DNA of 20,418 nt from UHGV virus genome UHGV-0101751; one strand, written 5' to 3'. Shown piece by piece: positions 4,367 through 5,638 of the stretch. The DNA comes from a virus. The notes below the pieces were generated by a model. That model had not been told where the DNA came from and ran no database searches. It saw only the letters and a list, made by a program, of their open reading frames with translations. How positions within the stretch are numbered: position 1 is the stretch's first letter; each line of letters opens with the position of its first letter. Made by a program: the position numbers and the translations under genes.

Positions 4367-5623
4367 ATGGCCATCCCGTCGTCTCTGAGTCTCGTACAGC
4401 TGCATTCTGGGCAGATGCAAGTCTTCCAGTCGCCACATCGTTTCAAAGTGGTGTGTGCGGGTCGACGCTGGGGTAAATCCCGGTTGTCGATCTCCACCAT
4501 CATCCGCGCGGCAGCCAAAGAGAAGAAGCAACGTGTCTGGTATGTCGCACCGACTTACCAGATGGCTCGCCAGATCTTGTGGGATGACCTGCAGGAAGTT
4601 CTGCCGCGCAAATGGGTTCGTAAGAAAAACGACACCACGATGACCATCGTGCTGAAGAACGGCTCTGAAATCGCGCTGAAAGGTGCGGATAAGCCCGATA
4701 CGCTTCGTGGTGTGGCACTGCACTTTGTGGTGCTCGATGAATTTCAGGATATGAAGCCTGACACCTGGTACAAGGTACTGCGTCCGACACTGTCCTCCAC
4801 CCGTGGCGGTGCGCTGATCATCGGTACGCCAAAAGGCTTCTCCGAGTTCCACAAGCTGTGGACTATCGGTCAGAACAAAGATTTGCAACGCAAGGGGCAG
4901 TGGAAGAGCTGGCAGTTCGTTACGGCCGATTCTCCGTTCGTACCGAGCGCGGAAATCGAAGCAGCGAAGAACGATATGGACCCTAAATCGTTCGCACAGG
5001 AATACCTGGCCAGCTTCGAAAACATGTCCGGACGCGTTTACTACCCGTTCGACCGCAATGTGCATGTGAAGCCACTCCAGTTCAATCCGAAACTGCCGAT
5101 CTGGGTTGGTCAGGACTTCAACATCGACCCTATGTCATCGGTCATCCTGCAACCGCAGCCAAATGGTGAACTGTGGGCTGTGGACGAATTGGTATTGTTC
5201 TCTTCTAACACGGCTGAAGTGTGTGACGAGCTGGAGCGTCGATACTGGCGCTGGAAATCTCAGGTCACTATCTTTCCTGACCCGGCAGGTGCGTATCGCC
5301 AGCACGCACGCGGCGAATCTGACGTCGACATCTTCAAAGAGAAAGGTTTCCTTCGAGTCGATTATCCGAAGAAGCACCCGCCGATCGCAGACCGTGTTAA
5401 CGCAGTGAACCGCATGTTGATGAGTGCCTCGGGCGAAACCCGGTTGTACATCGATCCGAAGTGCAAACACCTCATCGACTCGCTGGAGAAGGTGATCTAC
5501 AAGCCAGGCTCACGCGATATGGATAAGACTGGCGGCATCGAACACAGTGCGGATGCGTTGGGTTATCCGGTTCATCGTAGGTATCCGGTGAAAAATCGTG
5601 TTATTCTTGGTGGATCTAGATAG
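4367..5623 (+). CDS. terL: Terminase large subunit (418 aa)
   Basis: Walker A-like AGRRWGKS and Walker B-like HFVVLDE in the N-terminal ATPase half; D/E-rich C-terminal nuclease-like half. GGAG Shine-Dalgarno. Confidence 0.8.
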   Translation: MAIPSSLSLVQLHSGQMQVFQSPHRFKVVCAGRRWGKSRLSISTIIRAAAKEKKQRVWYVAPTYQMARQILWDDLQEVLPRKWVRKKNDTTMTIVLKNGSEIALKGADKPDTLRGVALHFVVLDEFQDMKPDTWYKVLRPTLSSTRGGALIIGTPKGFSEFHKLWTIGQNKDLQRKGQWKSWQFVTADSPFVPSAEIEAAKNDMDPKSFAQEYLASFENMSGRVYYPFDRNVHVKPLQFNPKLPIWVGQDFNIDPMSSVILQPQPNGELWAVDELVLFSSNTAEVCDELERRYWRWKSQVTIFPDPAGAYRQHARGESDVDIFKEKGFLRVDYPKKHPPIADRVNAVNRMLMSASGETRLYIDPKCKHLIDSLEKVIYKPGSRDMDKTGGIEHSADALGYPVHRRYPVKNRVILGGSR

Positions 5624-5638
5624 GTAAGTACTTACCTA
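5621..5638. repeat. Perfect 18-bp palindrome TAGGTAAGTACTTACCTA between terL and the portal gene
   Basis: Read directly from the sequence; it overlaps the terL stop codon and belongs to the TAAGT/ACTTA palindrome family. Confidence 0.85.

Follow-up and report, generated by a model that had tools for sequence, protein, structure and literature searches.

A symmetric 20-bp dyad at gene junctions of SSU5-type phage-plasmids, a candidate operator of lytic operons

The genes terL (4367-5623, with its TAG stop at 5621-5623) and portal (5657-7231, with its ATG at 5657) are neighbours in UHGV virus genome UHGV-0101751, a stretch of viral DNA of 20,418 nucleotides which is referred to here as the window. 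Their junction carries a palindromic element, hereafter the dyad, which recurs at other gene junctions of the window and of related genomes and is the subject of this study. Positions 1-17400 of the window show 100% identity with the E. coli plasmid pB379_2 (NZ_CP090457.1), and its kin are Salmonella phage SSU5 and SSU5-type phage-plasmids of Klebsiella and Escherichia. Judged by its sequence, the window is a degenerate SSU5-type phage-plasmid which has lost its capsid and tail genes. The complete genomes compared with it are SSU5, the Klebsiella phage pJN2-26 (~82% DNA identity) and the plasmid pCP102.

The dyad in the window and in complete relatives

An earlier note on this DNA had drawn attention to palindromes built on TAAGT/ACTTA half-sites at gene boundaries. 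All of those listed are present, namely TAAGTGACTTA at 3576-3586, TAGGTAAGTACTTACCTA at 5621-5638, TAAGTAACTTA at 11539-11549, TAGATAAGTA-TTTACT-TACTTATCTA at 17100-17125 and GTAAGTGCTTAC at 2168-2179. The recurrence of the half-sites is indeed beyond chance, with five occurrences of TAAGT-N0-8-ACTTA in the window against 0.06 expected. The core of the proposed family stood, but the bare pair is not the true unit, which is a 20-bp dyad of the abutting half-sites ATARGTAAGT and ACTTACYTAT. This dyad holds ~24 bits of information and shows a weak symmetric extension to +/-13. The list of sites was likewise right in part: those at 5621 and 17101 are strong, but two further strong copies (7134-7153 and 11656-11675) had been missed. 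The copies in the window are given below with their two half-sites and their score out of 20.

5620-5639, terL-portal junction: ATAGGTAAGT and ACTTACCTAA, 19/20
7134-7153, within the 3′ end of portal, in the codons for E-N-K-S-V-L-T-Y-D: ATAAGTCAGT and ACTTACTTAT, 19/20
11656-11675, in front of the replication module, whose first gene starts with GTG at 11689: ATAAGTAAGT and ACATACCTAT, 19/20
17103-17122, overlapping the stop codon of the last backbone gene: ATAAGTATTT and ACTTACTTAT, 18/20
2164-2183, degenerate copy where the helicase operon and the ParB-like-terminase operon diverge: TTAAGTAAGT and GCTTACACAA, 15/20

The copy at the terL-portal junction contains a perfect palindrome of 18 bp (5621-5638), overlaps the terL stop codon and ends ~6 nt 5′ of the portal Shine-Dalgarno sequence. 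From the copy inside portal to the start of the scaffold gene at 7254 there are 100 nt. Between the third copy and its GTG stands the Shine-Dalgarno sequence AAGGGA, and orthologues of this copy are found at 33600 in SSU5 and at 74983 in pJN2-26. The copy at 17103-17122 is part of an extended palindrome, TAGATAAGTA-N6-TACTTATCTA, which covers 17100-17125 and has TTTACT as its N6; its orthologues are at SSU5 41773 and pJN2-26 83366. The degenerate copy lies just 3′ of a TATTAT hexamer and abuts the ATG (2183) of the ParB-like gene. It appears to be a weaker member of the dyad family, and its orthologue in pJN2-26, at 34775, scores 16/20.

At a threshold of at least 17/20, the window holds four copies, compared with none in 200 shuffles. 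In SSU5, the 10-mer TAAGTAAGTA or its complement occurs nine times (~0.2 expected), and 23 positions reach at least 16/20 where composition-preserving block shuffles lead one to expect 0.05. The site totals are 28 in SSU5, 30 in pJN2-26 and ~18 in pCP102, nearly all of them at gene junctions; those of pJN2-26 (three perfect) occupy the same kinds of junctions. The earlier note had proposed a comparison of coding with intergenic density, and in the complete relatives the TAAGT/ACTTA pattern proved to be 60-80 times denser outside the interiors of coding sequences (CDS), with 13 occurrences outside against one inside in SSU5 and 18 against one in pJN2-26. Of the dyad sites in SSU5, 19 of 21 lie outside CDS interiors (P ~1e-15). 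The low frequency in coding sequence is partly mechanical, because the dyad holds stop codons in two of the three frames on both strands, but these stop codons cannot account for the ~400-fold excess in copy number. Nor does AT-rich composition, which had been considered as the cause, explain the pattern: among 30 half-sites of the same composition, TAAGT alone gives more than one intergenic palindrome.

Lineage-specific change and the level of recognition

Eighty viral loci, covering portal identities from 100% to 50%, were collected with the portal protein as anchor. The dyad is found at the terL-portal junction in every portal clade from 100% to 54% identity, and at 54% the fetched locus aligns to SSU5-type DNA over just 4%. 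In the clade of 79-80% portal identity, all three junctions per locus read ATAGGT-N8-ACCTAT. The junction sites of pCP102 have the form ATAGGTA-GTTAAC-TACCTAT, compared with ATAGGTA-AGTACT-TACCTAT in the main clade; the swap of the central hexamer is genome-wide, the outer arms are kept and the centre is still palindromic. In the lineage of 50% portal identity, TATCTCA-N4-TGAGATA, with other arms but equal geometry, occupies the terL-portal junction and two more.

The copy within portal follows the same change. The main clade encodes LENKSVLTYD and pCP102 encodes IENSLSTTYD at this place, with codons following the respective flavour of the dyad, and the flanking TTGAAA and TATGAT hexamers are kept. 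This dyad is thus retained at the expense of amino-acid change. The concerted change within a genome, together with the fixed positions, suggests a set of sites which co-evolves with one trans-acting reader.

Two further observations concern dyads in more distant DNA. In L201, a locus of the 50% lineage, the dyads lie at 1493-1515, 3946-3968 and 6600-6618; the one at the terL-portal junction is inside a promoter-like TTGACA-N16-TAGAAT layout, whose -10 hexamer is separated by ~8 nt from the portal ATG, and no Shine-Dalgarno sequence intervenes. A scan of viral contigs with the 16-mer core gave mostly single hits by chance and says little on the breadth of the family beyond the SSU5 group, 64 of the 76 single-site loci having no similarity to SSU5. 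At least four unrelated environmental phage lineages (L008/L081/L106, L017/L091, L022/L092/L095 and L024) have one or two copies of the perfect palindrome GTAAGTAAGTACTTACTTAC, in which every frame of either strand contains a stop codon; this recurrence is above chance for a 20-mer.

Covariation was examined in 95 distinct 20-mers. Mirror positions are Watson-Crick pairs in 691 cells, compared with 674 +/- 8 for randomly paired arms, and deviations in the arms are overwhelmingly one-sided with almost no compensatory change. G-T mismatches (61) are as frequent as A-C mismatches (56), so that neither strand's transcript is favoured. The symmetry furthermore continues across the central 4 bp, which are unable to pair in a hairpin. 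Two of the window copies fold at -10.8 kcal/mol and the other two at only -2.7 and -4.3 kcal/mol (z ~0), and no Rfam family was matched anywhere in the window. Since the deviations are uncompensated and half of the window copies cannot form a hairpin, we infer that a symmetric dimer recognises the dyad in double-stranded DNA and that it is not read as RNA. A structured RNA element was rejected on these grounds (no covariation, no G-U strand preference, weak folding, no Rfam match). An intrinsic terminator was rejected as well: the stems are AT-rich, none was called in the terminator scan and none lies in a convergent gap.

The earlier note had also counted the palindromes in two hairpin loops (3576-3586 and 11539-11549) as members of the family. 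These score 14-15/20 and belong to a different conserved element. The hairpin at 3549-3611, upstream of terS, has 63 nt with a perfect 20-bp stem (-37.9 kcal/mol, z = -12). Another copy, which is imperfect, precedes the replication module at ~11515-11575. Three copies in orthologous places, with conserved arms (CCTGCTTCCGTATAT...), are present in each of SSU5, pJN2-26 and pCP102. Main-clade loops read AAGT-N-ACTT, identical to the -22 box of phage P1, beside a TATAAATA-like stretch. The loops of pCP102 read TAAC-TG-GTTA and ACTG-GT-CAGT; because they do not adopt the dyad flavour of that clade, the loops are not counted in the dyad family. Candidate roles of the hairpin are those of a pac or origin site, of a strong terminator and of a late promoter.

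Placement at lytic operons and candidate roles

In SSU5, dyads are found in 21 of 59 co-directional gaps on the plus strand and in two of nine divergent gaps, compared with none of seven convergent gaps and none of five on the minus strand. This distribution indicates that dyads go with the starts of lytic genes and not with gene ends. They precede genes for replication, nucleotide metabolism, packaging, head, tail and lysis, including nrdA, thyA, SSB and methyltransferase genes, and are absent from the maintenance regions of SSU5. The distance to the next start codon varies from 12 to more than 180 nt. At three junctions (terL-portal, 11656 and SSU5 57746), a Shine-Dalgarno sequence stands between the dyad and the start codon, so that the promoter of the adjacent gene cannot be the dyad there. 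About one quarter of the copies are followed at 3-11 nt on their 3′ side by a terminator-like hairpin; several others follow an upstream terminator.

The flanks of the dyad are A-rich upstream and T-rich downstream. In 28 of 43 sites, ACTT is followed after a gap of 3 nt by TAnnnT, whose mirror image occurs on the other strand in 26 of 43. Promoter matches around the dyads are heterogeneous at low thresholds, and a directional sigma-70 promoter was rejected as the general nature of the element, given the symmetric flanks and the lack of a general -35 hexamer. The strongest sigma-70-like promoters which are conserved between clades all overlap a dyad. The promoter-like features next to dyads are as follows.

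7128-7156, plus strand: sigma-70-like promoter TTGAAA-17-TATGAT, its spacer filled by the dyad at 7134-7153
11615-11643, plus strand: promoter-like TTCCCA-17-TATGAT, its -10 hexamer kept in SSU5 and pJN2-26 (TATCAT in pCP102)
SSU5 55695: TTGAAA-17-TATCAT, overlapping a dyad
Upstream of nrdA: TTGATA-17-TAACAT/TATCAT, its -35 hexamer within the left arm of a dyad

The first of these is the top promoter-like match of the window (10/12) and is kept in SSU5, pJN2-26 and pCP102. With respect to the presumed transcript from 11615-11643, the dyad at 11656-11675 would occupy about +6 to +25.

The dyad is almost certainly where a phage-encoded regulator of the lytic genes docks. The reading which we favour, with a probability of roughly 0.45, takes the dyad as the operator of a phage-encoded dimeric regulator of the lytic operons, most likely a repressor. 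A symmetric dimer would bind two arms of 7-8 bp (ATAGGTA and TACCTAT) around the AGTACT centre. The copies lie on or right beside core promoter elements of rightward lytic operons and not at maintenance or lysogeny operons. During plasmid maintenance, the bound protein would occlude RNA polymerase at the lytic promoters, while copies at junctions would block read-through from maintenance genes which are interspersed in a long one-directional genome. One factor might in this way keep ~100 kb of lytic genes silent. A near-consensus promoter in front of genes for scaffold and capsid calls for a repressor as long as the plasmid is resident. Binding by a protein dimer, its encoding by the phage and the sign of the regulation are all points which we infer.

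Scattered sites of one regulator have precedents in other phages and plasmids. In L5-type phages (Cluster A mycobacteriophages), the immunity repressor of the gp71 type, which silences initiation and elongation, has more than 20 dispersed sites, the operators and stoperators, located at promoters or between closely spaced genes of long co-directional operons (PMC9283540). The site diverges between phage lineages together with its reader (PMC9283540; PMC6550527). However, stoperators are asymmetric, 13 bp long, bound by a monomer and functional in a single orientation, which is tied to the direction of transcription, whereas the SSU5-type dyad is symmetric over 20-26 bp and implies a dimer; the hosts also differ, being Actinobacteria for the former and Enterobacteria for the latter. 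The curated P1 record shows scattered C1 operators, where one repressor serves many sites overlapping sigma-70 promoters of lytic functions. These operators are asymmetric, 17 bp in length (ATTGCTCTAATAAATTT type), also clustered at c1 and unrelated to the dyad in sequence (Olpa and Oc1b were compared), and no C1 homologue was found by tblastn. The operator OB of KorB in the IncP plasmid RK2 is a 13-bp palindrome in ~12 copies, through which a reader of the ParB family keeps many operons silent. In SSU5-type genomes, genes for two ParB-like proteins directly follow the degenerate dyad (window 2164-2183), a trait reminiscent of KorB, but only ParB_N was detected in these proteins, with no sign of a sequence-specific DNA-binding domain, and the sites differ in sequence and size.

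With regard to the reader, all dyad genomes compared encode a FljA-like protein as well as the two ParB-like ones (SSU5_125 and SSU5_126 in SSU5). The FljA-like gene (PF03614, 'repressor of phase-1 flagellin') lies in the helicase operon of all three complete genomes, at 46897-47343 on the minus strand of SSU5. This protein is a candidate regulator of the phage itself; alternatively, it may be a moron with which flagellin of the host is shut off. The leader of E. coli fliC was dismissed as a target of the dyad type, as it holds no similar dyad. SSU5_054, SSU5_055 and SSU5_116 were rejected as readers because they are absent from relatives which keep the dyads. None of the window's own open reading frames (ORFs) resembles a DNA-binding regulator. 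The proteomes of SSU5 and pCP102 have diverged so far (median identity 63%) that conservation excludes no further candidates. Among host regulators, to our knowledge, neither the consensus sites of IHF, Fis, CRP, FNR, LexA, Fur and ArgR nor those of TrpR, CpxR, NarL, RcsAB, SlyA and MqsA fit the dyad.

Several points weigh against the operator reading. The sign of regulation is drawn from the geometry at four loci and a plausibility argument. No helix-turn-helix repressor common to all dyad-bearing genomes was found, and no binding protein for the dyad was identified in the genomes compared. SSU5_121, the annotated repressor, belongs to the FljA family (PF03614, E = 3e-81), and FljA regulators prevent translation of fliC mRNA (PMC2652032); the known relatives of the annotated repressor thus act on mRNA. 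The immunity region of SSU5 (93.2-99.7 kb) holds no dyad and so gives no sign of the autoregulation which is usual for master repressors. Matches to the -35 hexamer are at random level (mean 1.7/6), and most copies have none, so that there may be no autonomous promoter to repress at these places. Finally, an AAGT/ACTT core with an adjacent TAnnnT and no -35 hexamer is the layout of the activator-dependent late promoters of P1. Sequence alone cannot decide between an operator for repression and a late-promoter box for activation. The earlier note had offered both roles, along with a processing site; control of transcription at the DNA level is borne out by symmetry to the very centre, overlap with promoter hexamers, conservation at orthologous junctions and concerted change by clade. 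The processing site fell away, given uncompensated deviations, equal G-T and A-C counts, two of four window copies folding like shuffles and no Rfam match.

According to the activator reading, which is the main rival and somewhat less probable than the operator, the dyad would be the activator box of a phage promoter class without -35 hexamer, a counterpart of the -22 box of P1 late promoters. A phage factor made after induction would recruit or remodel the host RNA polymerase, with transcription starting at the adjacent TATnnT. Curated P1 late promoters have the form gAC-AAGT(G/T)ACTT-N4-TAnnnT with no -35 hexamer and precede genes for the portal (prt), terminase (pacA), lysis and tail fibres. 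In P1, as at many of the dyads (28 of 43), AAGT/ACTT inverted repeats abut TAnnnT (gap of 4 nt in P1 and 3 nt at the dyad, where SSU5 has AAGT/ACTT-ACY-TATnnT). Both systems have about a dozen or more copies spread over an enterobacterial phage-plasmid, some of them before portal, terminase, lysis and tail genes (PMC10695390). The absence of a -35 hexamer from most copies, the position of several copies after an upstream terminator, as expected of promoters, and the lack of dyads in convergent gaps argue for activation too. A start near +20 would fall in the 5′ arm of the following terminator and would thereby escape termination. A position within a spacer is also compatible with activation, as the box of P1 LPmat lies within the spacer of a full sigma-70 promoter.

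The two elements differ nevertheless. The P1 box spans 9 bp (AAGT-N-ACTT), of which one is a central base, and is preceded by an asymmetric gAC, whereas the SSU5-type dyad is symmetric over 20-26 bp, its core having no central base and reading AAGT/ACTT in the main clade and GTT/AAC in pCP102. The AAGT/ACTT core is hence not invariant, the outer arms being kept, and the symmetric element with TAnnnT on both strands contrasts with the directionality to be expected of a promoter. P1 late promoters serve late genes, whereas dyads also precede early-type genes (nrdA, thyA, SSB and replication genes). The Shine-Dalgarno sequences at terL-portal, 11656 and SSU5 57746 lie upstream of the start predicted by this reading. 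P1 late transcription depends on host SspA and on the phage activator Lpa (PF25716), of which no homologue was detected in the window, SSU5, pJN2-26 or pCP102: tblastn gave noise only, and the best E-value of a profile hidden Markov model over the ORFs of the four genomes was 0.43. The database homologues of Lpa are all P1-like. The dyad may therefore function in the way of a P1 late promoter, yet it falls outside that family.

A bolder and rather doubtful proposal is that nearly the whole lytic programme is transcribed from a single -35-less promoter class which is marked by the dyad and read by a factor unrelated to Lpa. The likeness to P1 would then reflect convergence on a surface of the host transcription machinery (e.g. 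RNA polymerase with SspA). Starts inside the 5′ arm of the hairpin 3-11 nt further on would allow re-initiation past each terminator.

It is improbable that the dyad acts as an RNA stem-loop, be it a site for processing by RNase, a bidirectional terminator of low strength or an operator at which the FljA-family protein would repress translation or promote decay. SSU5-type genomes do carry a strong match to the FljA family, whose members act on fliC mRNA (PMC2652032), some copies lie 5-10 nt 5′ of a Shine-Dalgarno sequence, two window copies fold at -10.8 kcal/mol, and the flanks are A-rich upstream and T-rich downstream. These features face the near absence of compensation, the equality of G-T and A-C and a conserved palindromic centre of 4 bp that is left unpaired. 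In addition, two of the four window copies fold like shuffles, the distance to the start codon is variable, no Rfam match exists, the fliC leader has no dyad, and copies are missing from convergent gaps, where terminators would be expected.

About equally remote, or slightly more so, is the notion of boundary sequences which need no dedicated protein, either suppliers of stop codons and patches of homology for recombination or relics of a mobile palindromic repeat. Several genes do use stop codons of the dyad, copies lie close to upstream stop codons, and palindromes of the form (GTAA)2GTAC(TTAC)2 also occur in unrelated viral contigs. Scattered mobile repeats, however, would not keep orthologous positions down to 54% protein identity. 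One copy is maintained within a CDS at the price of amino-acid changes, and no dyad is present where the window's large deletion has its junction, near 7845. Without a trans-acting reader, moreover, one can hardly account for a hexamer which has switched in concert throughout a genome.

A functionless by-product of AT-rich intergenic composition and TAA stops is scarcely credible and was ruled out: bare TAAGT is admittedly not enriched (27 and 14 copies against ~20 expected per strand) and some copies consist of a TAA stop followed by GT, but the other 29 half-sites of the same composition are not enriched, block shuffles give 0.05 against the 23 sites observed, and the motif is deeply conserved where the flanking DNA is saturated.

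Gene content of the window and significance of the dyad

Beside terL and portal, the window holds the following features.

1-55, left edge: IS26 end, truncating the homologue of a lipoprotein gene at 36-254
559-2118, minus strand: DEAD-box helicase
2183-2611: ParB-like gene, truncated (142 aa against 232 aa in SSU5)
Region 2183-3251, overlapping the truncated ParB-like gene: ABC-ATPase fragment, C-terminal two-thirds only (phrog_886 positions 83-294)
3723-4364: terS-like DNA-binding protein
7254-8021: scaffold gene, truncated (255 aa against 298 aa in SSU5)
8024-8275: Rz-like spanin, the end of the lysis module, to which the scaffold gene is joined
8444-9242, minus strand: GNAT-family toxin and DUF1778 antitoxin (KacT/KacA-like), adjoining the ParA-like partition gene
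Beside the GNAT/DUF1778 pair: ParA-like ATPase
10590-10624: hairpin with a perfect 15-bp stem (TTATGCATTGGCGCG...CGCGCCAATGCATAA), in the convergent gap between 10227-10586 (plus strand) and the GIY-YIG-like gene
10639-11406, minus strand: GIY-YIG-like gene (LEM-3-like domain), in the place of the SSU5 DUF2971 gene
11689-17106: replication module, including a DnaB-like helicase and a DNA ligase
16801-17106: last backbone gene
17482-20343, right end: Tn3-family transposase, N-terminus truncated

At the deletion junction near 7845, ~24 kb with genes for capsid, tail and lysis have been lost, so that this copy of the phage-plasmid is unable to make virions. The arrangement in region 2183-3251 points to a second internal deletion, which took the second ParB-like gene and neighbouring genes. 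The FljA-like repressor gene, which is next to the lipoprotein gene in SSU5, was removed from the window by the IS26 end. To the right of 17400, the window is unlike pB379_2, which has other genes there. The hairpin at 10590-10624 is likely a bidirectional terminator. The GNAT/DUF1778 pair has no counterpart in SSU5 itself; in the related phage-plasmid Cyrano, such a pair is reported to be expressed in lysogeny (PMC9928086).

Dispersed regulator-binding dyads in temperate phages are well known as a kind. No description of this motif was found in the SSU5, pHCM2 or phage-plasmid literature, of which coverage was incomplete, and the dyad seems undescribed so far. What appears to be new is the SSU5-type family of dyads, together with the flavours specific to its lineages and the resemblance to the P1 late box.

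Klebsiella, Escherichia, Salmonella, Enterobacter, Citrobacter and Yersinia commonly harbour SSU5-type phage-plasmids, and the head module of one clade alone matched 778 PLSDB records. They bear resistance genes and mobile elements, and their lysis-lysogeny control is essentially unstudied. The dyad would delimit the regulated lytic regulon, predict points of transcription control and serve, as a duplex 26-mer (AATGATAGGTAAGTACTTACCTATCATT), as bait for the regulator. Its flavours (AGTACT, GTTAAC and the TATCTCA type) would predict groups of immunity or cross-regulation. The likeness to the P1 late box, in genomes with no detected homologue of Lpa, links the two main families of enterobacterial phage-plasmids and may help to explain a poorly understood class of late promoters.

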